Positions 3 through 26,004 of a stretch of 35,158 nt of DNA are shown here, piece by piece. The position numbers and the translations under genes were made by a program. The stretch spans positions 64,001 through 99,158 of the IMG/VR virus record IMGVR_UViG_3300000176_000003, one strand, 5' to 3'. Source of the DNA: a virus (lineage: Duplodnaviria > Heunggongvirae > Uroviricota > Caudoviricetes). The notes beneath the pieces are model-generated. The model saw only the letters and a list, made by a program, of their open reading frames with translations. It did no database searches and was not told the DNA's origin. Positions within the stretch are counted from its first letter, which is position 1. Each line of letters begins with the position of its first letter.

Positions 3-326
3 AAAGTCGTATGCGTGCTTTGTCAATCATCGATGAAGGAACTTCACTCACATTTACTGAGGAAGCATAATATGACTGTAACTGAGTATAAAGCACAATT
101 TCCGGGGAACGAAACTCGTTGTCAATCACTCATCAAAGCACAAAAGATTATAGAATTTGATGGAACGTATTGGCATAATGAACAAGTTGCAAATCCAACT
201 GGGGAAAAAGAAAGAGACGAACAAATACTATTTTCAGGATACATGCTTCTACACGTATCAGAATTTGAGTACAAGAAAAACCGAGAGAAGGTATTGGAAG
301 AATGCATAAAATTTCTGATACAGTAG
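3..326 (+). CDS. Vsr-like/PD-(D/E)XK (EDxHD-type) homing endonuclease, 5'-partial and probably internally deleted, lying between halves of terL split intein 1
   Basis: The frame is open to the window edge (KVVCVLC...SHLLRKH, Zn-finger-like). It has IIEFDGTYWH...RDEQI..GY.LLHVSE motifs, and its 3' end overlaps the IntC start by 25 nt. Confidence 0.7.
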   Translation, partial: KVVCVLCQSSMKELHSHLLRKHNMTVTEYKAQFPGNETRCQSLIKAQKIIEFDGTYWHNEQVANPTGEKERDEQILFSGYMLLHVSEFEYKKNREKVLEECIKFLIQ

Positions 327-673
327 AACGAAAATTCATAGATAGTGTAGATATTGATGAATATGAAATCTGGACAGATTCTGGGTGGCAAGATATATCT
401 GCTATTCATAAAACTGTGGAATATGAACGTTGGATTATTAAAACAGAACGTGGGTTATATTTAGAATGTGCAGATAAGCACATTATTTTCAATGACAAAA
501 TGGAAGAAATTTTTATTGAAAATTGTATTCCACATAATACAAAGATTACAACAGAATATGGTTCAGATTTAGTAATAGAATGTTATAAGACTGATATTAT
601 AGAACCTATGTTTGATATTACCGTTGATAGCGAAGACCATAGATTTTACTCTAATGGCATTCTAAGCCACAAC
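302..673 (+). mobile_element. Split intein 1, C-half (124 aa), +1 Thr; N-half lies upstream of the window
   Basis: Block B LECADKH, block F MFDITVD and block G YSNGILSHN|T are present. There is no block A Cys1 in this ORF. Confidence 0.88.
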
Positions 674-1303
674 ACAACCACAGTGGCCGCGCTTCTTCTA
701 TGGTATATTCTTTTTCAAGATAGTTTCTCTATTGCCATTCTAGCAAATAAAGAAAGACAGTCAAGAGAAATTCTATCTCGTATTCAGCTTGCCTTTGAGC
801 ATTTACCTAAGTGGTTGCAACAGGGGGTTATCCAATGGAATAAAGGTAATATTGAATTAGAAAATGGTTCGAAGATTCTATCATCTTCAACATCATCATC
901 CGCTATTCGTGGGGGTTCGTTTAACCTAATTTATCTTGATGAATTTGCGTTCGTTCCAAATAATCTACAAGAAGAATTCTTCGCCTCAGTATATCCTACA
1001 ATTTCGTCTGGTCAATCCTCTAAGGTATTGATTACATCTACTCCAAACGGAATGAATATGTTCTATAAGATTTGGACAGATTCTGAAGAGGGAAGAAACC
1101 GATATCAAAGAGTTTCTGTACATTGGTCTGATGTTCCTGGTCGGGACGATGTCTGGAAAGACGAAACCATATCCAACACATCAGAACGCCAATTCGATCA
1201 AGAATTTAATTGTTTTTCCTCTGAAACTCTTGTTTATATAAACAATCAAGAACAAACCATAGGAGATTTATACGATGAGCTTATCAAAGAAAGCATTAAC
1301 TAA
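302..1303 (+). CDS. gp17: Terminase large subunit, middle fragment: IntC-1 + ATPase extein + IntN-2
   Basis: The extein begins TTTVAALLLW (right after the Walker A GK) and contains Walker B LIYLDEFAF and ITSTPNG. It ends QEFN followed by a Cys-initiated intein N-half. Confidence 0.93.
   Translation: MHKISDTVERKFIDSVDIDEYEIWTDSGWQDISAIHKTVEYERWIIKTERGLYLECADKHIIFNDKMEEIFIENCIPHNTKITTEYGSDLVIECYKTDIIEPMFDITVDSEDHRFYSNGILSHNTTTVAALLLWYILFQDSFSIAILANKERQSREILSRIQLAFEHLPKWLQQGVIQWNKGNIELENGSKILSSSTSSSAIRGGSFNLIYLDEFAFVPNNLQEEFFASVYPTISSGQSSKVLITSTPNGMNMFYKIWTDSEEGRNRYQRVSVHWSDVPGRDDVWKDETISNTSERQFDQEFNCFSSETLVYINNQEQTIGDLYDELIKESIN
1211..1300 (+). mobile_element. Split intein 2, N-half (30 aa, CFSSETLVYINNQEQTIGDLYDELIKESIN)
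   Basis: A block A-like CF..ET.V...I.DLY follows QEFN directly and is followed by TAA. Confidence 0.88.
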
Positions 1304-1580
1304 AATTATTACAAAAAGTGAGCTTGAATATCTTTATTTTGATAAATTAATGACTCTTGACGAAATTGGCAGACATTATGGATATATTGACAGACAGCCA
1401 ATTATGAGACTGTTCAAAAAACATAACATACAATCTAGAACAAAATCAGAAAATGCAAAACTTATTAATACCAATACCGATTTACCAAAATATATTGTTG
1501 AAAAGTTTTTAAAAGAAGATGATTATATCAAAAATCCAGAAAAAGTAGTAGAAGAATGTCTAAACTTCCTGAAACAGTAG
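1275..1580 (+). pseudogene. Homing endonuclease remnant: HTH domain plus last ~20 aa of a Vsr-like nuclease, catalytic core absent
   Basis: The N-terminal HTH resembles the repeats in 13051..14445. The C-terminus EDDYIKNPEKVVEECLNFLKQ matches EFEYKKNREKVLEECIKFLIQ of 3..326. No IEFDG.YWH motif. Confidence 0.7.
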
Positions 1581-1903
1581 TGTTAAATAAAAAGAATTTA
1601 AAAATTCTTACGCCAAATGGATATGAAACGTTTCTTGGTGTAAACAAAATCACAAAACCCCAATATGTTCATTTAAAATTTTCAAATGGAAAAGAACTTA
1701 AGTGTTCTGAAGATCATCCAATATTAACTATTGATGGTATAGTAAAAGCTAAAAATTTAGACAAAAAAACAGAAATCTCCACTAAAAACGGAGGTTGTTT
1801 TGTCGTATCTAAAAGAAACATAAAAAAACAAATTTTTCTTTATGATATTGTAAATTCTGGAAAAGACCATTTATATTACAGTAATGATATAGTTTCTCAT
1901 AAT
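1556..1903 (+). mobile_element. Split intein 2, C-half (116 aa), +1 Cys
   Basis: Block B LKCSEDHP, block F LYDIVN and block G YSNDIVSHN|C are present. The QEFx|CEFL site matches my recollection of AceL-/GOS-TerL atypical split inteins. Confidence 0.9.
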
Positions 1904-3835
1904 TGTGAGTTCTTAGGCTCTTCTAATACACTAATTGATGGAAAAAAACTTCAACAATTGACATATAGAACCCCACTATTTACTTCGGGTGGTGTAGATG
2001 TCTATGAGAACCCAGAGAAAAATAAAAAGTATATTACAGTAGTAGATACTTCTCGTGGTGTAGATATCGATTATTCTGCATTTATTGTCTTTGATGTAAC
2101 ACAAGTTCCATATAATATCGTAGCCAAATTTAGAGCTAATGATATCTCTCCATTACTTTACCCAAATATTATTCATCAAGTATCAACACATTACAATAAT
2201 GCATTAGCTCTTATAGAAACTAATGATATTGGACAACAAGTCGCAGATATTCTACATATGGACTTAGAATATGATGGTGTTATTGTAACACAAACCAAAG
2301 GTAGAGCCGGTCAAAAAATTGGTGGTGGATTTGGTTCTGGTGGAGGAAAATCTAAACCACAGTTTGGTGTTAGAACAACAAGGCAAGTAAAAAGAATTGG
2401 TTGTGGTAACTTTAAGACTCTAGTAGAGAGCGATAAACTCATTGTTAATGATTATGATCTTCTATATGAGATGGCAAGATTTATTGAAAATAAAGCCTCA
2501 TATGAAGCAGAAGAGGGTCATCATGATGACCTCGTAATGTGCTGTATTCATGGGTCTAATATGATTGAAACTGAGGATGGCCAAAAAACCATGCGATGGG
2601 TTGTTGAAAATAAGTATACCGGAAAAGTACTATCCTTAAATGCAGCGGGAGAATTTGAATGGAAATCTGTAATTGGCCATTCAGCTAAAGAGAATTCTGG
2701 AAAAAATAAAAAGACCTGGATTACATTAGGAGAAGCTGCCTCAGGAAGAAAGCGACTTATTTGTACTACAGATCATAAATGCGCTACAGTAAGTGATATA
2801 TTCAATCCAGAAATTGAATATTTAGAAGCCGACAAATTAGATGGAAAATATATTGTCAAATTTCCTAATACAAAAAAACATGGATTTCAAACTTTAAACC
2901 CAAGTTATAACAAAGATCAAGTTTCTGTTATATTGGGTATACAATTGGGTGATGGACATATTAACAGAAAGGGGAAATTTTCAACTGCTCATGGCGAAAA
3001 ACAAAATGAGTATTCTCGGTATATACAAAGTATATTGGGAGGAAACTTAACGTACAATAAAAAGAACCAATCTCGATTAGAATTTAATACGACAGAACAA
3101 ACACACAAATTGCGTGAGTTGATGTATATTGACGGGAAAAAAACTATAAAAAACATCTATAAGATGATAGACGAAATTAGTTTAGCTTTTTGGTATATGG
3201 ATGACGGACATTTAAAATTATCAAAAGGTTGCATAAATTATTCTGTAGAACTTTGTACCGATTCATTTTCATACGAAGATCATTTATTATTAAAAGAAGT
3301 TTTGTTTGAAAAATTCAATATAAATTCTAGTATAATAAACATAAAAAAATCTCCTATGCAATATAGACTAAGAATAGGAACTGAAAGTAGTAAAACCTTT
3401 TTTGATTTAATCGCTCCTTATGTATGTAAGAATATGGAATATAAAATTCCAGAAAATTATAGAACAATAGAATTAAAACCTATAAACAATTCTTATTTGG
3501 ATTATAGTATTGTAAAGGCAAATGTTTTTTATAGAAATCAAATGGGGCTGGAAAGCAAATTGTATGATATTGAAGTTGAGGGCAACCATAACTTTGTTGT
3601 TAACAACACTTTGGTTCATAATTGTGTATTGTTTGCGTGGCTTGTTAACCAATCATATTTTAAAGAATTGACCGATACTGATGTTAGAAGCAATTTAGTT
3701 CAAGATAATAATGCATTATTGGATGATGATATGCTTCCTTTTGGAATGATGGATTTTGGAGATGACGAACATGCTGAATGGAAAGCTGATCCGTTTTATG
3801 ACTTAGACTTTGGGCCACATAAAGATTATTTCTAA
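1556..3835 (+). CDS. gp17: Terminase large subunit, C-terminal fragment: IntC-2 + nuclease domain containing a cis intein
   Basis: The extein runs CEFLGSSNTLI...VDTSRG...IETNDIG...HDDLVMC|CVLFAW, giving the RNase H-like terminase nuclease motifs. Confidence 0.93.
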   Translation: MSKLPETVVLNKKNLKILTPNGYETFLGVNKITKPQYVHLKFSNGKELKCSEDHPILTIDGIVKAKNLDKKTEISTKNGGCFVVSKRNIKKQIFLYDIVNSGKDHLYYSNDIVSHNCEFLGSSNTLIDGKKLQQLTYRTPLFTSGGVDVYENPEKNKKYITVVDTSRGVDIDYSAFIVFDVTQVPYNIVAKFRANDISPLLYPNIIHQVSTHYNNALALIETNDIGQQVADILHMDLEYDGVIVTQTKGRAGQKIGGGFGSGGGKSKPQFGVRTTRQVKRIGCGNFKTLVESDKLIVNDYDLLYEMARFIENKASYEAEEGHHDDLVMCCIHGSNMIETEDGQKTMRWVVENKYTGKVLSLNAAGEFEWKSVIGHSAKENSGKNKKTWITLGEAASGRKRLICTTDHKCATVSDIFNPEIEYLEADKLDGKYIVKFPNTKKHGFQTLNPSYNKDQVSVILGIQLGDGHINRKGKFSTAHGEKQNEYSRYIQSILGGNLTYNKKNQSRLEFNTTEQTHKLRELMYIDGKKTIKNIYKMIDEISLAFWYMDDGHLKLSKGCINYSVELCTDSFSYEDHLLLKEVLFEKFNINSSIINIKKSPMQYRLRIGTESSKTFFDLIAPYVCKNMEYKIPENYRTIELKPINNSYLDYSIVKANVFYRNQMGLESKLYDIEVEGNHNFVVNNTLVHNCVLFAWLVNQSYFKELTDTDVRSNLVQDNNALLDDDMLPFGMMDFGDDEHAEWKADPFYDLDFGPHKDYF
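2543..3622 (+). mobile_element. Cis-splicing intein (360 aa) with LAGLIDADG endonuclease
   Basis: It starts CIHG and contains block B CTTDH, LAGLIDADG motifs LGIQLGDGH and LAFWYMDDG, block F LYDIEV and VHN|C. Confidence 0.92.
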
Positions 3836-3846
3836 GATTTGTTTTT

Positions 3847-3854
3847 TATAAATA
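3847..3854 (+). promoter_or_regulatory. T4-type late promoter
   Basis: Exact TATAAATA upstream of the AAGGAG RBS of gp18. Confidence 0.8.
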
Positions 3855-3899
3855 ATATCGAGATAAGATTATTTAGTTTCTTACATAAAGGAGAGAGAA

Positions 3900-6026
3900 A
3901 TGGCAATTCAAGTCAGCCCAGGCGTTAATATTAGCGAAATTGATCTAACAACAGTAGTTCCAGCAGTATCTACCACAACCGGCGCGTTAGCTGGTATTTT
4001 TGCTTGGGGTCCAGCTAATGTAAGAACATTAGTAAATTCTGAAGTCAATCTTACATCAATTTTTGGCAATCCAACAGATTCAAACTACGAAACATTCTTT
4101 ACAGCAGCAAACTTCCTATCATATGGCAATAGCTTATATGTAGTGCGTTCTGTTGAATCTGGAAGTTCTGTACCAGCAAATAATGCTTATAACGCATTTG
4201 CGAATACAGCATCTGCCGCAAACGTAGTTGTTCTAAACTCAGACGATTTTAACAATCAAAGCGCATCTCTATCATCAAGTATTGCTTATCTAGCAAAGTA
4301 TCCAGGCGCTCTAGGAAATAGCTTAAAGATTTCTGTCTGCGATAGTGTAAACGCATTCTCCCAAATAGTATCAGTAGCTACTGTAAACTCAGCAGCTTCA
4401 AATTCAGCAACATCATTTAATATTTCTGTTGTTGCGGGAGCAAACTCTGCTACAGTTACATTAACTTCAAACGGTGTTTCTGGTACTGCAAATGCTGGTC
4501 TTCAAGCTCTATCAAACTTTATTACTAATGGTGATATCATTACTATTGGAAATACTACAATTGGGACTCAAACTGTTAAGGTTACAGGATATACCGTAAG
4601 TGCCAATATTGAAGTTGCTGGTTCAGGAGCTAATGCTTTCACACAATACGCAACATTAAATCTTGCTGATCCAATTATCCTACCATACTCAGGGACTCTA
4701 ACTCAAGCATCAACTACTTCATATTGGGAATATTACAATAAAGTTAGTGCAGCCCCAACAACTTCACATTATCTAGCAGTTAAGGGTCTAACTGCTGTCG
4801 ATACACTCCACGTAGTTGTAGTAGACCAAAATGGTGCATTTACCGGTAAGCCAGGAACAATTCTTGAAGTATTCGAGGCTCTATCTAGAGCAACCGATGC
4901 TAAGACAGATCAAGGTGCCACAAATTATTATAAAACAGTATTGAATAATAATTCAAATTACATTTGGGCTGTATCTGATCGATCAGGTGCTGCATCGGCT
5001 CTTTCAACTGCAGTAACTTCATCAACAAACCCAAGTCCATTTACACAAACATTTACAAATGGTAATGATGGGCTTTCTGAAAGCACATGTTCTCTATCAA
5101 CTATTACTAATGGATACGATTTCTTTAAGTCTTCTCAAGACGTAACGGTTTCTCTAGTATTGGCTGGTAAAGCTCGTGGTGTTACAGCGGAAAGCACAAC
5201 ACCTTCTGGAAGTGGTACAAGTTATGCAACAATCGCTAACTACATCATTGGAAACATTGCAAACTATCGTAAAGATTGCGTTGCATTCATTTCCCCAGCT
5301 AAGGCTGATGCTGTGGTTCAACAAGCAGGCGGTGATGCTACCACAAATGTAATCAACTTCCTTGGAACTCTAGCTACTGCATCATCATACGCAGTAATGG
5401 ATTCTGGATATAAGTATCAGTATGATAAGTATAATGATAAGTACCGTTGGGTTCCTCTAAATGGTGATATTGCTGGTACATGCGTTCGTACAGACTTCAA
5501 CAATGATCCTTGGTGGTCACCCGCCGGTTTCTCTCGTGGGCAAATCAACAATGTAATCAAGCTTGCTTATAATCCAAACCAAACACAGCGTGATGCTCTA
5601 TATAAGGCTGGTGTAAATCCAGTTGTCACATTCCCAGGACAAGGAACAATCCTTTATGGTGATAAGACTCTAATTGGGCGTCCATCTGCATTTGATCGTA
5701 TCAATGTTCGTAGATTGTTCCTAACAGTAGAAAAAGCAATTTCTATTGCTGCTCAAAGTTCACTATTCGAATTTAATGATGATTTCACAAGAGCACAATT
5801 CGTAAATCTAATCACACCATATCTTCGTGATGTACAAGGGCGTAGAGGAATTACTGCATTCAAAGTTGTTTGTGATGCAACAAATAATACACAACAAGTT
5901 ATCGATTCTAATCAGTTTGTTGGAGACATCTATATCCAACCAGCACGTTCGATTAACTTCATCCAACTAAACTTTGTTGCAGTTAGAACTGGTGTTGACT
6001 TTACTGAAATTGTTGCGTCAATTTAA
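3900..6026 (+). CDS. gp18: Tail sheath protein
   Basis: N-terminal SPGV.I.EIDLT and C-terminal PWWSPAG..RG, FDRINVRRLF and INFIQLNFVAVRTG motifs. Confidence 0.97.
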   Translation: MAIQVSPGVNISEIDLTTVVPAVSTTTGALAGIFAWGPANVRTLVNSEVNLTSIFGNPTDSNYETFFTAANFLSYGNSLYVVRSVESGSSVPANNAYNAFANTASAANVVVLNSDDFNNQSASLSSSIAYLAKYPGALGNSLKISVCDSVNAFSQIVSVATVNSAASNSATSFNISVVAGANSATVTLTSNGVSGTANAGLQALSNFITNGDIITIGNTTIGTQTVKVTGYTVSANIEVAGSGANAFTQYATLNLADPIILPYSGTLTQASTTSYWEYYNKVSAAPTTSHYLAVKGLTAVDTLHVVVVDQNGAFTGKPGTILEVFEALSRATDAKTDQGATNYYKTVLNNNSNYIWAVSDRSGAASALSTAVTSSTNPSPFTQTFTNGNDGLSESTCSLSTITNGYDFFKSSQDVTVSLVLAGKARGVTAESTTPSGSGTSYATIANYIIGNIANYRKDCVAFISPAKADAVVQQAGGDATTNVINFLGTLATASSYAVMDSGYKYQYDKYNDKYRWVPLNGDIAGTCVRTDFNNDPWWSPAGFSRGQINNVIKLAYNPNQTQRDALYKAGVNPVVTFPGQGTILYGDKTLIGRPSAFDRINVRRLFLTVEKAISIAAQSSLFEFNDDFTRAQFVNLITPYLRDVQGRRGITAFKVVCDATNNTQQVIDSNQFVGDIYIQPARSINFIQLNFVAVRTGVDFTEIVASI

Positions 6027-6051
6027 TAAATAAAAAAATAGGAGAACAACA

Positions 6052-6615
6052 ATGGCACAAAGTTTTAATGTAAACGATTTCAAGAGTGGTCTAGTATATG
6101 GCGGCGCTAGACCAACTCTATTCTCAATTCAACTAACATCCCCATCAGGTGTATCAGTTGATTTTAGAAAAGTTCCAATTCTAGCAAAAAGTTCAACTTT
6201 ACCACCATCAAATTTGGGAACAATTGGTATTCCATATTTTGGCCGTGTAGTAAAGATGGCTGGTGATCGCACTTTCCCAACTTGGGACGTTACAGTAATC
6301 AACGACGAAGATTTCAAGATCAGAAATGCTTTAGAAAATTGGTCAAACTCAATCAACAGCATGAATGGTAACGTAAGATTGAGTGGAGAAAATGTGGCAT
6401 CATATAAGACCGATGCAACAATCACACAATATTCAAAGGCTGGTGATGTATTGCGTACATATACCTTCGAGGGGTTATATCCAAAGAACATTTCTACAAT
6501 CGATCTAGGTTGGGACAAAACAGACCAAATCGAAGATTTCACAGTAACATTTGAATATGATAGTTGGACTGTTCAGGGTGGTGCTTTTGGAGCAGCCTTT
6601 AATAACCAAGGATAA
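6052..6615 (+). CDS. gp19: Tail tube protein
   Basis: GARPTLF, GDRTF..W.VTVINDEDF motifs; follows the sheath gene. Confidence 0.95.
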   Translation: MAQSFNVNDFKSGLVYGGARPTLFSIQLTSPSGVSVDFRKVPILAKSSTLPPSNLGTIGIPYFGRVVKMAGDRTFPTWDVTVINDEDFKIRNALENWSNSINSMNGNVRLSGENVASYKTDATITQYSKAGDVLRTYTFEGLYPKNISTIDLGWDKTDQIEDFTVTFEYDSWTVQGGAFGAAFNNQG

Positions 6616-6658
6616 ATACTATTGAATTAATATTTTGTTATTGTGGTAGGAGGCTCTA

Positions 6659-8422
6659 ATGGCCGGACTTGAACTTTTTGGTTTTGAAATAAAAAGAAGA
6701 CAAGAAGAAAATAAGAATATACCGTCGTTTGCACCTGTGGTGTCAGACGACGGTGCTCTTAACGTATCTGCTGGTGGTGCATATGGCACTTATCTAGATT
6801 TAGAAGGTTCTGCTAAAACTGAAGCAGAACTTGTTTCTAAGTATAGAGAAATGTCTATTCAACCAGAATGTGAAGGTGCAATTGATGATATTGTGAATGA
6901 AGCAATTGTTAAAGATGATAATCAAGAAATTGTAGATATTAATTTAGACAATTTAGACGTATCTACAAACATCAAAAATTTAATCATAGAAGAATGGAAT
7001 AACGTAGCACTATTATTGAACATCAATAATTATGGCTATGAGGTATTCAGACGTTGGTATATTGATGGTAGACTATATTACCATGTAATGATTGATGAAA
7101 CAAATCCTCGTGCTGGTATTCAGGAATTGAGATATATCGATCCTAGAACTATCAGAAAAATCAAAGCAATCAAAAGAGAACGTCGCGGCAATACGTTTGT
7201 CAATATTACCGCACAAGAATTTTATATGTATAATGAACGCGGTTTCCGTGGTGCTACTGCTACCGGTATGGATAATCAAGGAATAAGAATTTCTAAGGAC
7301 TCCATTGTTCAAGTTACATCTGGTCTTATGGATAAAGACAATCGTCTAGTTCTAGGCTATCTTCACAAGGCAATTAAGCCACTAAACCAACTTCGTATGT
7401 TGGAAGACGCAACAGTAATTTATCGTATTTCTCGCGCACCAGAGCGTCGTATTTTCTATATTGACGTAGGCAACCTTCCAAAGATGAAGGCTGAACAATA
7501 TGTTAAGGATATGATGACTCGTCATAAGAATCGTCTAGTATATGACGCCACAACAGGTGAAGTAAGAGACGACAGAAAGTTTATGACAATGCTTGAAGAC
7601 TATTGGCTACCTCGTCGTGAAGGTGGTCGTGGTACAGAAATTTCAACATTACCATCTGGGCAAAATCTAGGCGAGCTTTCCGACGTTAATTACTTCCAAA
7701 AGAAACTTTATAAGTCTCTAAATGTTCCTATGTCAAGAATCGATTCAGATTCTACTGGGTTTAATATGGGACGCGCAGCCGAAATTACTCAAGATGAACT
7801 AAAGTTCCAAAAGTATATCAACCGCCTTCATATCAGATTCTCTCAATTGTTTATGTTAGCTTTAGAAAAGCAACTACTATTGAAGGCAATTATTACATCA
7901 GAAGATTGGGAAAATTTCAAGAATAAGATTCACTTCAATTTCAAGAAAGACAATTATCATTCTGAATTGAAAGATGCTGAAATTCTTCGTGAAAGACTTA
8001 GTACACTTCAACTATTAGACCCATATGTAGGAATCTTCTATTCTCAAGAATGGATTAAGAAGAACATTCTAATGCAATCTGAAGAAGACATTTCTACTAT
8101 GAAAAAGCAAATGGAATCTGAAGAAATATTTCCATTAAGTGCTCTTGCTCAAATGCAAGCACAAGAAGATGAAGAGGCCCAAGCTGAAGCCGAAAGAAAA
8201 CCACCAGAAAAAAAAGAAACTCCTAAAAAGAGCAACACTAAGTCGAAATCAACTAAACCACCAGTAAAGCATAGTGTTGGGGGTAGAGCTACAAGTGGTG
8301 GTGATCCCGTAAGAACAGAGATTGTTAACGCAGGAAGTGGTCCATATACAAGAAATATGCCTGAAAAGTACTTCGACTGGAAGAAGCCTTTACTAAAGGC
8401 AAAAGCAAAAAATACTAAATAG
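6659..8422 (+). CDS. gp20: Portal vertex protein with a Lys-rich C-terminal extension
   Basis: WYIDGR, RAPERRIFYIDVGNLPK.KAEQY and EDYWLPRREGGRGTEI motifs. Confidence 0.97.
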   Translation: MAGLELFGFEIKRRQEENKNIPSFAPVVSDDGALNVSAGGAYGTYLDLEGSAKTEAELVSKYREMSIQPECEGAIDDIVNEAIVKDDNQEIVDINLDNLDVSTNIKNLIIEEWNNVALLLNINNYGYEVFRRWYIDGRLYYHVMIDETNPRAGIQELRYIDPRTIRKIKAIKRERRGNTFVNITAQEFYMYNERGFRGATATGMDNQGIRISKDSIVQVTSGLMDKDNRLVLGYLHKAIKPLNQLRMLEDATVIYRISRAPERRIFYIDVGNLPKMKAEQYVKDMMTRHKNRLVYDATTGEVRDDRKFMTMLEDYWLPRREGGRGTEISTLPSGQNLGELSDVNYFQKKLYKSLNVPMSRIDSDSTGFNMGRAAEITQDELKFQKYINRLHIRFSQLFMLALEKQLLLKAIITSEDWENFKNKIHFNFKKDNYHSELKDAEILRERLSTLQLLDPYVGIFYSQEWIKKNILMQSEEDISTMKKQMESEEIFPLSALAQMQAQEDEEAQAEAERKPPEKKETPKKSNTKSKSTKPPVKHSVGGRATSGGDPVRTEIVNAGSGPYTRNMPEKYFDWKKPLLKAKAKNTK

Positions 8423-18311: not shown

Positions 18312-18457
18312 TCTTCGTAGTAATACTCGGAATCGGAATCATCTTCATCAACGAATTCTATATCTGAACCACAGAATGGACAATAATCCACCGAAGGTCC
18401 AGTATCAGAAATGACTCTAAATTCTTCTTCGCAACTGTTACAGGTAATCCATTTCAT
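18308..18457 (-). CDS. Small Zn-ribbon protein (49 aa), missing from the ORF track
   Basis: Manually translated as MKWITCNSCEEEF...YCPFCGSD..., with two CxxC pairs and TAATG coupling to the upstream ORF. Confidence 0.75.
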   Translation of the reverse strand: MKWITCNSCEEEFRVISDTGPSVDYCPFCGSDIEFVDEDDSDSEYYYEE

Positions 18458-19626
18458 TATAGGCTAAATCCCTTAAATGTAGTTTCGTTCACATCTTTAT
18501 TTATATCACCAATAATATAAGAAGTAATTTCACCTTCTGTAGCATATCTAATTAATAAATCCATATTCTTCCCCCAACGACTTTTAGGCCATCCCAACGA
18601 TAACTGTTTTTGAAACGTTGCATATGAACGACCATTTTCCATACAATATTTTTTTAAATCATTGCTATAGATAAATATGTTTAGTCCTTCTATATATAGA
18701 AGTTTTACTCCGGGTCTATTATAATGTTTTTTTCCTCTATTTGCTGCACCAATTTTATTGGCAGTTTCTGTGCCTTTTACTATTACACCATATCTTGCGT
18801 TGTTTTTACCAGAAGAAGCTTCCCTAAGTTTGATCAAACTTATTTCGGAATGTTTATGCCCTTTAAACCAGCCGCCCGCAGCCGACTGTAATATATTTCG
18901 CTTAGTTCTTTGATCTTCCGCCCCACCACCATATATATCTTCATAAGATTTACCTTTATGATTGGGCGGTCTATTATCTTCGCATATATTTGTAAGGATG
19001 CCCCCAATATCATAATCAATTCTACCATATTTTTTGATAAGAGTTCTTTCGATGTCATATGCTAAAGATTCGTCTTCTATATTCTGGGCATAAAACTCAA
19101 TAACAGGAGAATACCCGAGAGATTTTAATTTTCGTATTTTTGCGCTTTTTCTATTATTTCCAGATCGAGATAACACAGATTCGCTGAAATGAGAAAGGGC
19201 TCTATCATCCTTACCCTTACCAATATAAAATACCTGATTATTTCTTGGATCAATTAGACCGTATACATAGTATAACATTTCAGTCTCCTTTATTCTATTT
19301 ATAAAGACTGTGTTTGCGGCATATGTAATATGCTCTTCAGTATGGTTTGTACCATAACAAAAAATATTATATTTCCTTTGATCTAGGGTTGGAGTAACAT
19401 CCACCAGTTTATTTCCAATATCAAGTACTGAGTGCTTGAATGCGTGAAGTATGTTGTGACTGTCTTTTATAATGTAATAACCTAAAACAGGATTTATCTC
19501 ACAGTTTTTGTGGCACAAAAAGGGTAGATCGCCTTCTCTAGGAGAAATAACTATTTCTCGCAATTTCGTTGCTTTTAATGCTTTAGCGAAAGCAACACAC
19601 TCTTCAATTTCGGGAATAAAGTACAT
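18457..19626 (-). CDS. GIY-YIG endonuclease (internal start 19278) with an N-terminal extra domain and a C-terminal duplicate of the NrdB tail
   Basis: YYVYGLIDPRN..VFYIGKGK..RA..H nuclease motif and NUMOD-like HSE.S..KLRE segment. It ends EITSYIIGDINKDVNETTFKGFSL. Confidence 0.8.
   Translation of the reverse strand: MYFIPEIEECVAFAKALKATKLREIVISPREGDLPFLCHKNCEINPVLGYYIIKDSHNILHAFKHSVLDIGNKLVDVTPTLDQRKYNIFCYGTNHTEEHITYAANTVFINRIKETEMLYYVYGLIDPRNNQVFYIGKGKDDRALSHFSESVLSRSGNNRKSAKIRKLKSLGYSPVIEFYAQNIEDESLAYDIERTLIKKYGRIDYDIGGILTNICEDNRPPNHKGKSYEDIYGGGAEDQRTKRNILQSAAGGWFKGHKHSEISLIKLREASSGKNNARYGVIVKGTETANKIGAANRGKKHYNRPGVKLLYIEGLNIFIYSNDLKKYCMENGRSYATFQKQLSLGWPKSRWGKNMDLLIRYATEGEITSYIIGDINKDVNETTFKGFSL
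19296..19303 (-). promoter_or_regulatory. Late promoter inside the ORF, followed by AAGGAG and ATG 19278
   Basis: Minus strand reads TATAAATA-gaata-AAGGAG-actgaa-ATG. Confidence 0.7.
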
Positions 19627-20732
19627 TATAGGCTAAAACTCTTAAAAGTATTTTCGTCCACATCTTTGTTTATACCACCAATAATATATGAAGTAATTTG
19701 TCCTTGTTGTGGTGCGACTTGTACTTCTGCCCCCGATATCCACTTTTGAGTCCAAGGTAGAGGATTAGACCCCATAGACTTTCCATTAAGCCCAATAGCC
19801 CCCATACGCTTATGACCAATCCAATCGACATAATCGCAGAGAAGCTTTTCATTAAGACCAATCATAGAGCCATCCTTGAACAAATATTTTGCCCAAGTCT
19901 TTTCTTGATCAATAACTGAATCAAAAATATCAACCACTTCATTGTGAGTTTCTTCCTTGATCTTAGCAAAGTCTGGATCTTCTTGAGGAAGAATCTTTAG
20001 AAGTTGTTGAGTAGCTGCAAGGTGGACATTCTCATCACGAGCAATAAGCTTAATGATCTTAGCATTACCTTCCATTTTCTTGACTTCAGCAAATGCCCAA
20101 GAGCAAGCAAATGATACATAGAAACGAATGCCTTCAAGAGCATTAACTGCGTTAAGGCAGAGCCATAATGCTTTTTTATGATTAAAAGAACCACCATATT
20201 GCATAGCCGCATAATTATATGTTTCAATTACACTAGATATATTATTTTGAGCAATCAAATCATCGTAATACTTACTAATATCACCAGCACATTCTACAAT
20301 CTCTGGGATATCAAGCATCTCATCAAACACTACTGATGGATCGGGGTACACGTTACGAATGATATGAGTATATGAACGAGAGTGAATAGTCTCTGAAAAT
20401 GACCAAGTCTGAATCCAAGTCTCAAGTTCTGGAATAGAACAAATAGGAAGGAATGCTAGAGAGGGCGCTCTACCTTGAACCGAGTCCAAAAGAATCTGCC
20501 TCTTTAGATTGGAGGTAAAGATATGCTTCTCATGTGTAGTTAAGCTCTTAAAATCCTTACTATCTCGTGATAGTTCAATTTCTTCTGGACGCCAAAAAAA
20601 TGATAATTGTCTTTCTGTTAGCTTTTCAAATGCTGGATATTTTACTGATTCGTATCGAGCAATGTTAACTGGCTCTCCGAAGAAAGCCAGTTGCTTAGTA
20701 TGATCTACTTTATGTATATTAAATACTGACAT
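19626..20732 (-). CDS. nrdB: Ribonucleotide reductase class Ia beta subunit
   Basis: FFWRPEEI, LDSVQGR, ETIHSRSY, LEGIRFYVSF and RDENVH motifs. Confidence 0.97.
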   Translation of the reverse strand: MSVFNIHKVDHTKQLAFFGEPVNIARYESVKYPAFEKLTERQLSFFWRPEEIELSRDSKDFKSLTTHEKHIFTSNLKRQILLDSVQGRAPSLAFLPICSIPELETWIQTWSFSETIHSRSYTHIIRNVYPDPSVVFDEMLDIPEIVECAGDISKYYDDLIAQNNISSVIETYNYAAMQYGGSFNHKKALWLCLNAVNALEGIRFYVSFACSWAFAEVKKMEGNAKIIKLIARDENVHLAATQQLLKILPQEDPDFAKIKEETHNEVVDIFDSVIDQEKTWAKYLFKDGSMIGLNEKLLCDYVDWIGHKRMGAIGLNGKSMGSNPLPWTQKWISGAEVQVAPQQGQITSYIIGGINKDVDENTFKSFSL

Positions 20733-20959
20733 TATTCCTCTACTATTCTAAATGCTTTTCTAGACACTATTGTATCATAATTACGGCCCTTAAGTCTAAT
20801 CAAAAGACCATCACCTATACCAGAATATTGATGAGCAGATTCTACTTCCCATACTATACCAATTTCGCTCCACCATTGCGGATCATTAAATGTAATTTTC
20901 GTTCCTGGTGTAATTATTAAATCTTGCATATCATATTTTCCATGTTTTAAATAGTACAA
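20732..20959 (-). CDS. Hypothetical protein
   Basis: 75-aa ORF coupled between nrdA-c and nrdB. Confidence 0.5.
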   Translation of the reverse strand: MYYLKHGKYDMQDLIITPGTKITFNDPQWWSEIGIVWEVESAHQYSGIGDGLLIRLKGRNYDTIVSRKAFRIVEE

Positions 20960-21951
20960 CTATCACAATTTTCTTCGTCAGTGTCACCTTTCGCCAGTTC
21001 TTCTACCCTCATTTCACCAGCACCATCATTCGTATTATTATAATAAAGCGTCTTAATACCATACTTATATGCCATCAAAATATGCTTTAACATTTCCGAT
21101 AATGGAATCTTTTCATCAGGATAGAACTTTGGATTATAAGAAGTATTAGTAGAAATAGATTGGTCAATCCACTTTTGTAATACAGCCATAATCTTTAGAT
21201 ATCCTTCTGGTGAAGATTGGTCCCACAGAAGTTCATACTTATTTTTAAGTTTGCGCACTTCGGGAACAACTTGCTTTAATACACCTTCACGAGAACTCTT
21301 AATCGACACTAAAGCACGCGGAGGTTCAATTCCATTTGTAGAATTAGACACTTGAGCAGAAGTTTCTGCTGGCATTAGAGCCATTAGAGTAGAGTTACGA
21401 ATGCCGTATAGATCAGCTTCTTCACGAAGAAGATTCCAGTCCATGGACACAGGACGCGAAGTTAATTCATCAACCTCCTTCTTATATGTATCTATAGGAA
21501 ATTGGCCATGCCCATACTTAGTTTCATACCACTTATCACAGGCTCCCTTTTCTTTGGCTAGATCAATAGAAGCTTTAATTAGATAATAAGACCAAGCTTC
21601 TGTATATTGGTCAATTAAATCTAGATTGGGATTAGTATAGGTCATATCGTTCTTAGCCATCCAATATGCTAGATTGATAATACCAATACCTAAAGGGCGA
21701 CGATTCATTGTAGAAAGTTGTGCAGCAAGAACAGGGTAACTCTGATAATCAAGTAGAGCATCAAGAGCGCGTACTGCTAGAGTACAGGGCTTTTCAAAAT
21801 CAGATGTCTTTTTAATTTTACCCCAATTTATCGCACTCAAAGTGCATAAGCTAATCTCAGATTTACAATCCGATTCAAATATATCAGTCACATATACATG
21901 ATCTGAATCATCATGATCAATATTATCAACAATTTCGTATTTAAAATTCAT
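20947..21951 (-). CDS. nrdA: RNR alpha subunit fragment c (C-terminal) with an acidic N-terminal tail
   Basis: EISLCTLSAIN (C462-equivalent), RRPLGIG, MPAETSAQ, DQSIS, KTLYY and terminal CDSC. Confidence 0.93.
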   Translation of the reverse strand: MNFKYEIVDNIDHDDSDHVYVTDIFESDCKSEISLCTLSAINWGKIKKTSDFEKPCTLAVRALDALLDYQSYPVLAAQLSTMNRRPLGIGIINLAYWMAKNDMTYTNPNLDLIDQYTEAWSYYLIKASIDLAKEKGACDKWYETKYGHGQFPIDTYKKEVDELTSRPVSMDWNLLREEADLYGIRNSTLMALMPAETSAQVSNSTNGIEPPRALVSIKSSREGVLKQVVPEVRKLKNKYELLWDQSSPEGYLKIMAVLQKWIDQSISTNTSYNPKFYPDEKIPLSEMLKHILMAYKYGIKTLYYNNTNDGAGEMRVEELAKGDTDEENCDSCTI

Positions 21952-22543
21952 TATATTTCCTTATATGTTTAGTGAAATTTCCTAAATCCCATTCTTTGTG
22001 ACAACACACACAACATATTTTTTTACCCTGTAAATGAGATGTTCCATTTGGTGCTTTTTTGAGATTATATTTGCCTCGTTTTTTATTTAATTTAGATTTT
22101 CTCATTTTTTCTTTAGTTTTATCAGAAATGTGAATAACTCCACGCAAACCTTTATTCCAAGGAGTCTTTCCTTTCTTACTTAATGAAAGTTTTTTTCTAT
22201 GTTCTATTGTTTGAGGTCTTTTAGGTATACCTTTTTGTGTTTTGCTAATTTTATTTTTATGTTCTTCACTTAATCCCATTTTAGATGGGTTGTTTAGTTT
22301 CATTCTATTAGATGTATTTAAAGGGTGTTCTTTTGATTGCCAATAATGATCATTATGCTCAATTTTATTTTTTTGTGCTTTAGAAAGGGTTTCTCTTACT
22401 TCTAACGATCTAATTTTTCCTTTATTGCTTTTAGATATTTTATCTGCGGTGGAAGAGCCTTTAACAATTCGTCCTAAAGAGGGCGAGATTTTATTTACAA
22501 CGGCTTTGCTATTATTCCAAACTTCCCAATCATCTTTATACAT
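21941..22543 (-). CDS. NUMOD3-like DNA-binding repeat protein; probable homing endonuclease remnant with no recognisable catalytic domain
   Basis: Repeated H..E...KIS...KG motifs (EEHKNKISKTQKG, EHRKKLSLSKKGKTPWNKG). No GIY-YIG or HNH motif, and the in-frame upstream sequence hits TAG after ~24 codons. Confidence 0.7.
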   Translation of the reverse strand: MYKDDWEVWNNSKAVVNKISPSLGRIVKGSSTADKISKSNKGKIRSLEVRETLSKAQKNKIEHNDHYWQSKEHPLNTSNRMKLNNPSKMGLSEEHKNKISKTQKGIPKRPQTIEHRKKLSLSKKGKTPWNKGLRGVIHISDKTKEKMRKSKLNKKRGKYNLKKAPNGTSHLQGKKICCVCCHKEWDLGNFTKHIRKYNEF

Positions 22544-22559
22544 TAGTTTAGTATTAATA

Positions 22560-23555
22560 TCAGATTCGTATTTTTTTGCTTTTAATTGGGGTATTGGGAT
22601 TTGATTTTTTCCATTCTAAATACTTTTTATATTCTTCTTTAGTCAGTTTCATTACTTTAACTATTGGACTACCGTCTTTCAGATCATTTAATGGCTTAGT
22701 TGGAAGGGTAATTTCGGCGCAAAGATTTGATTGGCGAATTGGTGCGACTTCAGATAAAAATGAACCGTGATCATTACAATGATCCACATTCATTAGATAT
22801 ACACGTCCAGTATCCTTCCGTTCTTGAACAAATGATGAGAACATGTCAATTGCGGGTACTTGCTTTTTTCGCAGCTTTGGGTTGCGTTCTGCGCGCTCAT
22901 ATAATTCTCTAAATTTATTTGAGTCTACAAAGAATGCTTCATAGAGTTCTGGTACGTCATGGGGACTAAAGAGTGTGATATTTCCACCATTAATAAGTCG
23001 CTCATACATCACCTTATTGAATTGTACACCATAATCTAGATGTCGAATCCGGTTATCTTCAGTACCTTTATTATTTTTTAGGACTAAAAGTTCCTCCGCT
23101 TCCAAGTGCCAGATTGGGTAATATAATGTAGCCGCTCCTCCACGGACCCCCCCTTGAGAATTGTGAGTAAGAACCATTTCTGATTCTGGAGAATTTGCAG
23201 CAAAAAAAGTGTGTGTGTCTTCTACAGTAATATCAATATAATTAATTGAAGTATTTCCTTTAGATACACTAATAATTTTAGTATGATTATTATCTGTTAA
23301 GATTTTATCAGAAAAAAGTAAATTATCTGGCAATACTGTAAATTGCATATTGTCTTTTTCAATCATTATTGGGTGATTTTTTGAACAATTTAATTCAGTT
23401 TTATTGTCAAAAATAAGAGTTCTTTGATCATCTATGCAAACTTCAGTTTCCCAAATGTCAGTTACAGTTTTAAAAACAACATTTTTGTTGGCATCTAAAG
23501 TTTTAATTTTCATACCAACTACCAAATCTTTTAGTTGAATTTTTTTAGTTTTCAA
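22560..23555 (-). CDS. nrdA: RNR alpha subunit fragment b: IntC + central extein + basic tail
   Basis: TTG start with AAGGA RBS. The extein runs SQGGVRGGAATLY...SNLCAEITLPTKPL (N437/C439/E441-equivalents). Confidence 0.92.
   Translation of the reverse strand: MKTKKIQLKDLVVGMKIKTLDANKNVVFKTVTDIWETEVCIDDQRTLIFDNKTELNCSKNHPIMIEKDNMQFTVLPDNLLFSDKILTDNNHTKIISVSKGNTSINYIDITVEDTHTFFAANSPESEMVLTHNSQGGVRGGAATLYYPIWHLEAEELLVLKNNKGTEDNRIRHLDYGVQFNKVMYERLINGGNITLFSPHDVPELYEAFFVDSNKFRELYERAERNPKLRKKQVPAIDMFSSFVQERKDTGRVYLMNVDHCNDHGSFLSEVAPIRQSNLCAEITLPTKPLNDLKDGSPIVKVMKLTKEEYKKYLEWKKSNPNTPIKSKKIRI
23160..23555 (-). mobile_element. NrdA split intein C-half (132 aa), +1 Ser
   Basis: It starts with the second half of block A (KIQLKDLVVGMKIKT) and contains block B LNCSKNHP, block F YIDITVE and THN|S. 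Confidence 0.88.
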
Positions 23556-24378
23556 TTTTATATTCCTTGATTTGCGGCTTATCCCAATTATGATATTGTA
23601 TCATATGTTTACTAAAATTACCAAGATTATATTTTTTATTGTTATTACAATCAAAAGGACAAGCTCTATATTTATTTTTATCATTCATCGCACAATCAAC
23701 ACCATACTTTTCTATGTTTGTTTTTTTGCTTTTAAAATTTCTGTCTGTCCAATCTTTTTCTTCCATAACTTTTTTATGTGTTTCTTTTGTTTTTTTATCA
23801 AACATCATATTTGTTACCCCATGTTTATCAAACATAACTTCTGATAATTTTTTTGGGTTTTTAAATGGGTTGTCTGTACCATATATTGTTTCTATAGAAT
23901 TTTGTCTTGGAGTTTTTACTATATCTAAATCTAATGTATGGTGTTTTCCATATTTTTTTATATTTGTTTTATATATTTTATCTTTTATTATTTTTGATCC
24001 TGATCCCCTTGAACCATATTTTTCTATTAATTTTGTATTTACTTTTTCTTGCACTTTATCAAATTCAAAAGGAAATGGTCCTTCTATATTTAATGGAACC
24101 ATATTATTATTCCATCTATTTAAATATTTTTTATTGTTTGGTATGTTTAATTTTTTAAGAACTTTGGTTTCCCATAATAATGCTGAATTCTTATCTTTAA
24201 AAACTTTTCTAATTTCTATTAGATTTGGTTCTCCATGTTTTTCAATAAACAATTTTACATATTTTGAAGATGACATATAGGTACTGCCAATGTCTTCTAA
24301 TTTTGCTTTTTTTGAATACCTAACTCCATAATAATATTTGTCTTGTTGTGTCCATCCTAGTAAATAAGTATAATACAT
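23545..24378 (-). CDS. GIY-YIG-like homing endonuclease between the NrdA intein halves
   Basis: YTYLLGW...YYGVR...YMSSSK...WETKVL...LN N-domain and repeated KTNIxKYG motifs. Very AT-rich. Confidence 0.8.
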   Translation of the reverse strand: MYYTYLLGWTQQDKYYYGVRYSKKAKLEDIGSTYMSSSKYVKLFIEKHGEPNLIEIRKVFKDKNSALLWETKVLKKLNIPNNKKYLNRWNNNMVPLNIEGPFPFEFDKVQEKVNTKLIEKYGSRGSGSKIIKDKIYKTNIKKYGKHHTLDLDIVKTPRQNSIETIYGTDNPFKNPKKLSEVMFDKHGVTNMMFDKKTKETHKKVMEEKDWTDRNFKSKKTNIEKYGVDCAMNDKNKYRACPFDCNNNKKYNLGNFSKHMIQYHNWDKPQIKEYKIEN

Positions 24379-24396
24379 ATTTTTCTCCTTTATACT

Positions 24397-24404
24397 TATT
24401 TATA
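24397..24404 (-). promoter_or_regulatory. Late promoter of the intervening endonuclease
   Basis: TATAAATA followed by the AAGGAG RBS and ATG 24378. Confidence 0.75.
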
Positions 24405-24410
24405 GTTTTC

Positions 24411-24428
24411 TCTAACGCCACCCTGGCT
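24411..24428 (-). repeat. Out-of-frame synonymous copy of the C-extein start (SQGGVR)
   Basis: AGC CAG GGT GGC GTT AGA overlaps the IntN stop codon. The real extein reads TCT CAA GGG GGG GTC CGT. Confidence 0.75.
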
Positions 24429-25333
24429 TATTCCTCAATAACTTCGACCCAGGTTTCTGGAGTAAGACAACACGATTTAACAGCACTTTGAAAATGTTTA
24501 TAAAAAGGTATAACTCCAGTATGACTAGCGTCACCATTACGAATGGGACTGCCAATAGCCCTAATACGACCAGCACCAATACCAATCCCAGCCTTTTGAC
24601 TAACATACTTAACGACTGCTGCAGATGTTGCATTGATGGAATCGAGTGAGTCATCAGTTTCGATAAGGACACATGAGCTAAACTGCCTTTGAGGCGTGCG
24701 AACTCCAGCCATAATAGGAGTAGGAAGGCTAATATCAAAAGTGCTAATGGCATCATAAAATTCCTTTACCCATTTAAACCGATCTGTTGTGTATTTTGAA
24801 AATAGAGTCATTGCGATAAGAATGAATGACATTTGTGGTGTTTCATAGAACTTGCCCGTTACGCGGTTCTTAACAAGATACTTACCGCGAAGTTGTTCCA
24901 TTGCCGCATAAGTCAGCAATTCGTCCCGAGAATGATCAATCAATGTGTCAGCAAACTTCCATTCGTCTGCAGTATATGCATCGAGTAGCTGACGATCATA
25001 ATAACCTTCCTTTACTACATGTACGACATGAGTATATAGATTATCAGGAGTAAACCTACCATAAACTTCCTTACGAAGATTATAATTGATTAGGCGTCCC
25101 GCAACATATTGATAGTTTGGATGTTCTTCAGAAATCAATTCGGCAGTAGCCTTAATTAGAGTTTCTTGAATATCGGTTGACTTAATATTATTATAAAACT
25201 GAATCTGTGATTTAATTTCAATTTCAGATACAGATACTCCAGATAGACCTTCACATGCTTGTTCAACTACCTTATGGAACTTGTTTAGATTTAACGGTTC
25301 TTTTGTTCCGTTGCGCTTAGTTACATTAATCAT
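24428..25333 (-). CDS. nrdA: RNR alpha subunit fragment a (ATP cone, C225-equivalent) + IntN
   Basis: VTKRNG.KE ATP cone, ETPQ, SLPTPIMAG, QFSSCVLI and GIGIG motifs. Confidence 0.95.
   Translation of the reverse strand: MINVTKRNGTKEPLNLNKFHKVVEQACEGLSGVSVSEIEIKSQIQFYNNIKSTDIQETLIKATAELISEEHPNYQYVAGRLINYNLRKEVYGRFTPDNLYTHVVHVVKEGYYDRQLLDAYTADEWKFADTLIDHSRDELLTYAAMEQLRGKYLVKNRVTGKFYETPQMSFILIAMTLFSKYTTDRFKWVKEFYDAISTFDISLPTPIMAGVRTPQRQFSSCVLIETDDSLDSINATSAAVVKYVSQKAGIGIGAGRIRAIGSPIRNGDASHTGVIPFYKHFQSAVKSCCLTPETWVEVIEE
24431..24469 (-). mobile_element. NrdA split intein N-half, 13 aa (CLTPETWVEVIEE)
   Basis: It follows KSC of the conserved KSC|SQGGVRGG site, has a block A-like CL.PET.V, and is followed by TAA. 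Confidence 0.85.
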
Positions 25334-26004
25334 ACTTCATCCTTGGTGTTAAAATAATCTGTTAGTGCTGGGAAACTATTTAGGACTACTTCCTTACACT
25401 GTTCTGCAATACTGCGATGTTCTAGCTGAGTAGCCTTATCAGTACGAATTTCGATATAATGCACCCACGAACGAAGTGTGCCCGCCATATAAAGAGTAGA
25501 CCCGGTCATGCCCTCTGGTAGAATTGCGCGAGCCTGTTCCTTAGCAATACCCTTGTTAAGTGCCCACTCATATGTCTCTTGGATTTGTGCAAGTAAACTA
25601 GCTTGGCGCATACGAAAATCTTCCGCAAGACGACGAGATTTTTCATCATCACCCATAACAATTGAATTTTGACGATTCTTATTATCTTGTGTGCGGGCTT
25701 CCCGAAATTCAAAATTATCAGCTACCGCATATCGTTGAGAAAATTCTTGGAATGAAAATGACCGGTGACGCAGAATTTGACGAGCAATATCACGAGTAGT
25801 TTTAATTTCCATCGTAAGACTTACCATCTCCAATGGTGACCAATGGGCATTGTTAATAAGATACTTGACTAGCTTAGGGGCAGTTTCTGTATTCATTTGA
25901 TTAGCCGGATTAGATACTCGGGCAGCATATGCCACTAGATCGTTCGCATCCTTTACACCTTCAATTGTTGGTTGTGTAATACCAATTAGCTTCACATCAG
26001 ACAT
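25330..26004 (-). CDS. thyX: FAD-dependent thymidylate synthase
   Basis: HWSPLE, RHRSFSFQEFSQRYA and KEQARAILP motifs. The start is set at MSDVK (GAGGT RBS). Confidence 0.95.
   Translation of the reverse strand: MSDVKLIGITQPTIEGVKDANDLVAYAARVSNPANQMNTETAPKLVKYLINNAHWSPLEMVSLTMEIKTTRDIARQILRHRSFSFQEFSQRYAVADNFEFREARTQDNKNRQNSIVMGDDEKSRRLAEDFRMRQASLLAQIQETYEWALNKGIAKEQARAILPEGMTGSTLYMAGTLRSWVHYIEIRTDKATQLEHRSIAEQCKEVVLNSFPALTDYFNTKDEV

Follow-up and report, generated by a model that had tools for sequence, protein, structure and literature searches.

A probable naturally split intein with a 13-residue N-terminal fragment in the fractured nrdA gene of a Caudoviricetes virus

Introduction

How few residues can make up the N-terminal half of a naturally split intein? 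The question is raised by the ribonucleotide reductase (RNR) gene nrdA of a virus of the Caudoviricetes, which is broken into three pieces and in which the first piece runs into 13 intein codons before it stops. The locus was analysed in a stretch of 35,158 nucleotides (hereafter the window), positions 64,001 to 99,158 of the 99-kb IMG/VR virus record IMGVR_UViG_3300000176_000003, where all the nrdA-related genes lie on the minus strand. A preliminary description, made from the letters of the window, had proposed a naturally split intein with a 13-residue N-terminal fragment (IntN) and had put the shortest natural IntNs at about 15-16 residues. The literature is in accordance with this figure. 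The natural atypically split IntNs reported range from 15 to 37 residues (PMC13014065, March 2026), the PolB16 OarG IntN of 15 residues being called 'the shortest characterized to date' (PMC10189870). VidaL has 16, AceL-TerL 25 and GOS-TerL 37 residues, and the artificial Ssp DnaB M86 has 11 (PMC13014065). Short IntNs are sought as fragments that can be made by peptide synthesis and that add little to the target protein, and split inteins that occur in nature usually perform better than those cut artificially.

The analysis indicated that the element is very probably a class 1 mini-intein of about 145 residues at Cys225/Ser226 of phage class Ia NrdA, split at the S1 site by a free-standing homing-endonuclease gene and acting by trans-splicing.

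Results

Anatomy of the split intein

The N-extein terminates in ...AVKSC, whose last Cys is the Cys225 equivalent and the -1 residue. The same frame continues through IntN to the TAA stop at 24428-24430, and 24428-24520 (minus strand) translates to ...AVKSCCLTPETWVEVIEE followed by the stop. The whole open reading frame (ORF) of piece 1, with IntN and stop, covers 24428-25333 (minus strand) and 301 residues. Piece 2 (22560-23555, minus strand) is a second ORF with a TTG start, carrying first the C-terminal intein fragment (IntC) and then the C-extein. Translation of its intein part reads (TTG)KTKKIQLKDLVVGMKIKT...MVLTHN, after which SQGGVRGG follows. Each half lies in an ORF of its own, with its own signals, a TAA after codon 13 for IntN and AAGGA with TTG for IntC. 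The preliminary description had placed the element at 23160-24469, and these limits were found to be exact (Table 1).

The match to the RNR barrel profile of Pfam halts at position 69 in piece 1 and is taken up again, from the same profile position, at residue 131 of piece 2, and because of this the 13 + 132 residues constitute a clean insertion. The intein-free relatives, that is the loci matching piece 2 only from residue 133, read KSC/SQGG uninterrupted (here and below the slash marks a junction). The C-extein opens with Ser+1 (SQGGVRGGAAT), carries SNLCAEI with the equivalents of Asn437, Cys439 and Glu441, and ends in a basic non-RNR tail. Piece 3 has an acidic non-RNR leader, ISLCTLSA with the Cys462 equivalent, a YY pair and the C-terminal CDSC. 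The catalytic RNR motifs, from KSC at the junction to CDSC, are complete over the three pieces.

The intein blocks could be read from the two halves. In IntC the remainder of block A reads KTKKIQLKDL, block B CSKNHP, block F DITVEDTHTFF and block G MVLTHN. All the class 1 splicing residues were found, namely Cys1, Ser-Lys-Asn-His of block B, Asp and His of block F, the terminal His-Asn, and Ser+1. In block B a Ser replaces the Thr of T-x-x-H, and it is conserved invariantly as CS.NHP. The charges of the two fragments are complementary, IntN being acidic with four Glu and the start of IntC basic (KTKKIQLK).

Table 1. Positions of the features at the nrdA locus, in window coordinates
Feature	Position	Strand	Basis
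nrdA piece 1, N-extein, 288 aa	24470..25333	-	Pfam PF03477, PF00317, PF02867 positions 1-69 (ATP-cone, all-alpha domain, first 69 positions of RNR barrel)
IntN, 13 codons, CLTPETWVEVIEE	24431..24469	-	Translation; aligns to first 13 residues of contiguous and split homologues
Out-of-frame SQGGVR stretch, copy of first C-extein residues	24411..24428	-	Read from sequence
Free-standing homing-endonuclease-like gene, 277 aa	23545..24378	-	Pfam DUF7487 E 1e-7; PHROG 3339 'homing endonuclease' E 1.8e-5; phrog_37840
AAGGA ribosome-binding site	23564..23568	-	8 nt before IntC TTG, within 3' end of nuclease gene
IntC, 132 aa, TTG start	23160..23555	-	Translation; weak HINT-family Pfam matches; family profile
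nrdA piece 2, C-extein part	22560..23159	-	Pfam PF02867 positions 69-221
Second inserted ORF, 200 aa, NUMOD3 DNA-binding motif	21941..22543	-	Pfam NUMOD3 E 2.5e-7
nrdA piece 3, 334 aa	20947..21951	-	Pfam PF02867 positions 214-522

Contiguous homologues and fold

IMG/VR was scanned for homologues with two queries, piece 2 and IntC alone. Contiguous homologous inteins stand at the same NrdA site in the loci L003/L004, L103, L084/L089 and L097. Their N-termini read, for example, CLTPDTIVEIINEDGLETKKIRIADL (L003) and CVTPDTWVEILDEDDSDNKDKKIQIKDL (L103), and the contiguous chains run CLTPDTIVEIIN-EDGLE-TKKIRIADL or CVTPDTWVEILDE-DDSDNKD-KKIQIKDL. Because these homologues read through, the window pieces are the two sides of one intein N-terminus from which only loop residues are missing. 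The expectation that the joined halves would rebuild an intein N-terminus was thereby confirmed, with L003 and L103 reading through both flanks.

The HINT fold was assessed on the model of the contiguous homologue L003, and not on the two pieces of the window. The AlphaFold2 model of the L003 intein reached a predicted local distance difference test (pLDDT) value of 96.6, with strands at residues 7-11 and 18-22 and a loop at residues 12-17. The window break maps by alignment into this loop. The model places the break at the S1 site, the loop after the second beta-strand, as in VidaL and PolB16; the S1 split is defined as 'immediately following beta-strand 2' (PMC13014065). A Foldseek search with the L003 model retrieved solved inteins, BIL and hedgehog domains with E values down to 2e-7 and template modelling (TM) scores of 0.65-0.81. 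The family alignment profile (A3), which includes the window IntC, also matches solved inteins (E 1e-5). The direct sequence search of the PDB with IntC gave only MJ0781/KlbA (E 0.009), and the PHROGs search gave no family for IntC.

One homologous intein (L002, IMGVR_UViG_3300027631_001838, 3956-4399) lies one residue earlier, KS/C...THN/CSQGG. Read from its sequence, the catalytic Cys of the host protein would act there as the +1 nucleophile in place of Ser, and the insertion would have slid by one residue within the family.

Modelled association of IntN and IntC

The preliminary description had called for modelling of the complex. The input consisted of the C-terminal 40 residues of piece 1 and the N-terminal 140 of piece 2, with alignments from 16 relatives each. 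The complex model scored 0.92 and the best of the 3 controls 0.15. The score mark is reached by 58 of 80 solved complexes and by 2 of 110 mismatched pairs, these counts being rough since the alignments were self-supplied. The runs shared at least 76% of the contacts, with partner pLDDT of at least 50. In the modelled interface KSC and all the 13 IntN residues face IntC residues 1-9 and 15-18 (neighbouring strands), 55-62 (block B), 117-123 (block F) and 130-133 (HN/S). This agreement may show likeness to the intein fold, possibly drawn from the many solved inteins, and is not proof that this copy binds.

Distribution and lengths of the split family

The IntC query recovered 36 IMG/VR loci, of which 26 begin IntC at the same point as the window. 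IntN could be read in 24 of these and has 18-23 residues there, the 13-residue core being followed by an acidic tail. In the protein collection the best 120 of 1257 matches to the end of piece 1 were inspected, and 39 of the clusters (90% identity) among them stop inside the intein, with IntNs of 13-37 residues. The lengths are distributed over 13 residues (7 clusters besides the window), 14 (7), 15 (6), 16 (3), 17 (5) and 18-37 (11), and no IntN below 13 residues was present among these best 120 matches. The 13-residue clusters are not alike in sequence (e.g. CVSPDSWIEILDK and CLDEETWIEVLDE); their members come from dozens of contigs of up to 160 kb, all of them with the layout of N-fragment, nuclease gene, and IntC with the rest of NrdA.

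Degenerate DNA patterns for IntNs of 12 and 11 residues gave 0 matches in IMG/VR, and the 12-residue pattern gave 0 matches in the JGI metagenome contigs. These searches are weak evidence: the 13-residue patterns themselves gave 0 matches in IMG/VR and one contig (L125) in the metagenome set. Because the 13-residue patterns found almost nothing, the two contig sets evidently hold few members of the short class. In the papers covered, no short-IntN split intein in a ribonucleotide reductase gene was found, and an earlier mention or listing of the NrdA family is possible.

The 13-residue IntN is thus the short end of a natural, continuous series of lengths within an NrdA family that is large and undescribed. 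The preliminary suggestion that it may be among the shortest holds in that it lies two residues under the characterised record of 15; it is not unique, with at least 7 other 13-residue clusters, and an artificial IntN of 11 residues works. As to whether shorter natural examples are common, none below 13 residues was seen in the matches inspected, and it is the 13-residue form itself that is common, though undescribed. It may be that the stop has moved freely through the loop (13 to 37 residues) and never into the two-strand core; we lean, by a little, to the view that it has, and that 13 residues are the natural lower limit for a working IntN. If this is true, the 13-mers would be the shortest naturally evolved split-intein fragments, and dozens of natural orthologues would be at hand for consensus design of a very short, efficient tag for peptide-based semisynthesis.

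The nuclease-like gene between the halves

The gene between the halves carries an N-terminal GIY-YIG-like motif and a DUF7487 domain and is preceded by a strong Shine-Dalgarno (SD) sequence, AAAGGAG; its nuclease role is assigned by homology. It starts 49 nt after the IntN stop, and its last 11 nt overlap the IntC start. Orthologous genes of 274-285 aa occupy the same slot in L120, L122 and L124. In other relatives the slot holds an HNH gene or ORFs of 537-915 aa, so that different nuclease families (GIY-YIG-like, HNH, large ORFs) are represented, and in two nuclease-free relatives only 21 nt (L106) and 143 nt (L086) separate the halves.

The out-of-frame SQGGVR copy stands between the IntN stop and the promoter-like TATAAATA (24397-24404, minus strand) of the nuclease gene. 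Inspection of 17 other split loci revealed a similar remnant (QGGVR, GGMRNA or GGVRNG) in 11 of them, matching in each case the extein of its own locus. The bearers include L120, L122, L124, L118, L113, L085, L094, L100, L107 and L098, with the remnant just after the IntN stop. It lies beside the late-promoter-like TATAAATA box or over the SD and start codon. All the DUF7487-type and the 364-369-aa GIY-YIG-like cassettes among the 17 loci have it, and it was not found in the remaining six (L086, L105, L082, L083, L091 and L096). The I-TevI endonuclease is autorepressed through an operator resembling its homing site. The extein copy may likewise be a homing-site mimic serving as operator, or it may be a scar of the original insertion.

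Conservation and persistence of the split

Within the family Cys1, CS.NHP of block B, DITV..TFF of block F and M.LTHN/S of block G are invariant, and the rest of IntC is about 50% identical. The dN/dS of IntC, calculated by the Nei-Gojobori method over 19 split IntCs, has a median of 0.16 and a range of 0.04-0.40, values which are approximate as dS is near saturation. They point to purifying selection on IntC.

Contig L123, from another sample, is 98% identical in piece 1 and agrees with the window in IntN, in its stop and in an IntC started by TTG. Deletions have cut its two inserted nuclease genes down to stumps, of 73 aa in the intein slot and 95 aa for the NUMOD3 ORF, and all the three nrdA pieces are intact. 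Chance or an assembly artefact was considered as the origin of the arrangement and ruled out because of L123 and the many independent contigs. With the nuclease-free relatives, these comparisons indicate that the split is old, is kept under selection and outlives the nuclease gene. A megablast search of 20900-25400 against INPHARED gave no match, i.e. no near-identical phage there.

Discussion

Proposed mechanism

The same-site homologues, the conserved blocks, purifying selection, the lack of a detectable intron and a complex model scoring above its controls bear out the preliminary description of a naturally split intein with a 13-residue IntN. In the proposed course of events a homing-endonuclease gene would have split the intein in the loop after the second beta-strand. 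Piece 1 would be made as the N-extein with a 13-residue acidic IntN, and piece 2 would be translated from its own ribosome-binding site and TTG, which lie within the 3' end of the nuclease gene, to give an IntC with a basic end and its extein. The 13-mer would dock onto IntC and supply the first strands that the HINT fold lacks there. Cys1, Ser-x-Asn-His of block B, Asp and His of block F, the terminal His-Asn and Ser+1 would then perform ordinary class 1 trans-splicing, forming the peptide bond Cys225-Ser226 of NrdA next to the active-site cysteine. The spliced product of pieces 1 and 2 would then associate with piece 3 unspliced, in the manner of phage Aeh1.

Several points weigh against this reading. 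IntC alone stays below the Pfam cut-offs, with 18.4 against 35.8 bits for PF14890 and 20.3 against 27.7 bits for PF07591. These sub-threshold scores reflect a divergent family and a query without the N-terminal 13 residues; the weak HINT-family matches begin at profile positions 10-13, as is expected for an IntC without its first strands. The level of IntC expression is uncertain, given a TTG in the window and in L123 where the relatives L120, L122 and L124 have ATG. The dN/dS values are approximate as stated, and the IntC of L123 is identical to that of the window, so that selection on the 13-residue lineage rests on more distant members. Docking is predicted from a model of the window pieces, and splicing is a prediction for every member of the family. 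Moreover, characterised inteins with a short IntN can splice slowly or undergo side reactions, as reported for PolB16 (PMC13014065).

Alternative explanations

The first alternative is that the halves no longer splice and serve only for holding the NrdA pieces together non-covalently, like the tails at the second break or in Aeh1. The same gene does tolerate an intein-free break whose pieces must assemble unspliced, and Aeh1 is a precedent for it (PMC3045599). However, the residues that are invariant over about 25 diverged members are those of the splicing chemistry and not merely of binding (Cys1, the block B His, the terminal His-Asn and Ser+1), and an unexcised domain of 145 residues would sit directly on the active-site Cys225 equivalent. 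This explanation is accordingly considered improbable.

It could also be argued that the nuclease insertion killed the intein and that nrdA is a decaying pseudogene, the phage then depending on reductases of the host or on others. In favour of this are the break-up of the gene into three pieces, the weak TTG start of IntC and the view that some phage nrdA genes are degenerating (PMC3653736). Against such decay stand three intact ORFs with complete catalytic motifs, a relative (L123) that has lost most of both nuclease genes and no nrdA or intein coding sequence, the low dN/dS of IntC (about 0.16), and the same layout in dozens of independent contigs, and the probability left to this explanation is very small.

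A self-splicing group I intron enclosing the nuclease gene, by which the mRNA would encode a contiguous intein and the 13-residue IntN would never be a protein end, is suggested by the GIY-YIG genes of T4-like phages, which are often intron-borne, RNR genes included (PMC3653736), but it is the least probable of all and is excluded as far as sequence analysis reaches: no Rfam match to a group I or II intron was obtained on either strand at E <= 10 over 20800-25500 (only snoRNA-level noise), there is no room 3' of the nuclease ORF, which overlaps the IntC start, and only the 49 nt 5' of it, the nuclease-free relatives keep stop and restart with too few nucleotides between them (21 or 143) for an intron core, and IntC has its own ribosome-binding site at a codon that is ATG in relatives.

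Comparison with known systems

The window element, taken as a trans-splicing intein, belongs to a kind already known, the natural split inteins of S1 type in fractured genes, with an IntN two residues below the characterised record. Among the systems close to it is VidaL (PDB 6vgv), which is also natural and cysteine-dependent, with an S1 split, a peptide-sized IntN and a long IntC (PMC13014065). The VidaL structure and the L003 model superpose with TM 0.71 and 18% identity in the structural alignment, and no match exists at sequence level. They differ in IntN length (16 against 13 residues), in the NrdA Cys225/Ser226 site of the window, and in that fast splicing was measured for VidaL whereas splicing of the window element is predicted. 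PolB16 OarG, too, is naturally and atypically split at S1, and its very short IntN can be supplied as a synthetic peptide (PMC10189870). It is a cysteine-independent Ser1/Ser+1 intein of a PolB gene from a gut metagenome, whereas the window element has Cys1/Ser+1, a normal block B His, an aquatic phage nrdA as host and an IntN 2 residues shorter. AceL-TerL and GOS-TerL share with it the natural short IntN, the phage genes and the aquatic metagenomes, but are split at the S2 site after the first helix, with IntNs (25 and 37 aa) about twice as long or more (PMC13014065). The artificial Ssp DnaB mini-intein M86 is cut at the same S1 position and gives proof of principle for trans-splicing with IntNs of 11-13 residues (PMC13014065); it is engineered and laboratory-evolved, whereas the window intein is natural, with many orthologues, and shaped by selection as two pieces.

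In gene order the locus follows the fractured genes of Dassa et al. 2009 (NrdA-1 to -7, gp41-1, NrdJ-1 and IMPDH-1; PMC2677866), namely extein-IntN, a short spacer (27-51 nt there, 49 nt in the window), a GIY-YIG-type nuclease gene, and IntC-extein overlapping the nuclease end. In both the nuclease gene lies on the same strand with its own control signals, in phage-like metagenome DNA. The NrdA loci of that study have the intein at the thiyl-radical Cys439 site with a canonical split and an IntN of about 100 residues, in contrast to Cys225 and a split after 13 residues in the window (PMC2677866).

A natural 13-residue IntN that pairs Cys1 with Ser+1 would usefully extend the toolbox, its value being mainly for protein semisynthesis. 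The family supplies a set of natural variants with IntNs of 13-37 residues, contiguous and split, with and without a nuclease gene. It also documents the life cycle of nuclease genes inside an intein: they invade, are replaced by other nuclease families, decay and are lost. During all of this the split appears to be maintained by selection on an enzyme that has its active-site cysteine at the splice junction.

Other fractured genes and inteins

The second nrdA break of the window (20947-22673, minus strand) lies between the Cys439 and Cys462 equivalents and is without an intein. The NUMOD3 ORF between pieces 2 and 3 overlaps piece 3 by 11 nt, with an AAGGA-ATATAA-start arrangement identical to that at the intein break. 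The tails flanking the break are conserved in L002 and L003, where no ORF intervenes. The break of nrdA-a/mobE/nrdA-b in Aeh1 has the same position, with non-RNR tails on both sides and a nuclease-like ORF between them, mobE being a gene of HNH type whereas the window ORF carries the NUMOD3 motif; the arrangement of basic and acidic tails was shown to work in Aeh1 without splicing (PMC3045599).

The nrdA gene of L003 (IMGVR_UViG_3300028361_000020, 3008-7160) is an extreme fractured RNR gene, with three inteins plus an intein-free break. [quoted passage not shown] In L110-L112 (~3890-3930) two inteins flank an extein segment of eight residues, the second starting eight residues after the first ends (MVLTHN/SQGGVRGG/CVSADSYVKT...).

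Two more genes of the window are affected. Directly after nrdB, a 389-aa GIY-YIG/NUMOD3 ORF (18457-19705, minus strand) has at its end a sequence almost the same as the C-terminal tail of NrdB, ...ITSYIIGDINKDVNETTFKGFSL in the nuclease ORF against ...ITSYIIGGINKDVDENTFKSFSL in NrdB. Judged from these sequences, it looks as if a nuclease cassette was inserted near the 3' end of nrdB and brought a replacement end with it. The terL gene (302-3835, plus strand) is fractured as well. One piece ends ...EFN/CFSSETLVYINNQEQTIGDLYDELIKESIN and a stop, with a 30-aa IntN of the AceL-TerL (S2) type, which is followed by a 101-aa nuclease remnant and then by IntC with TerL, the latter bearing a large contiguous intein that has an insert of endonuclease size. 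The terL piece at 302 itself begins with an IntC, and a further split intein therefore lies upstream.

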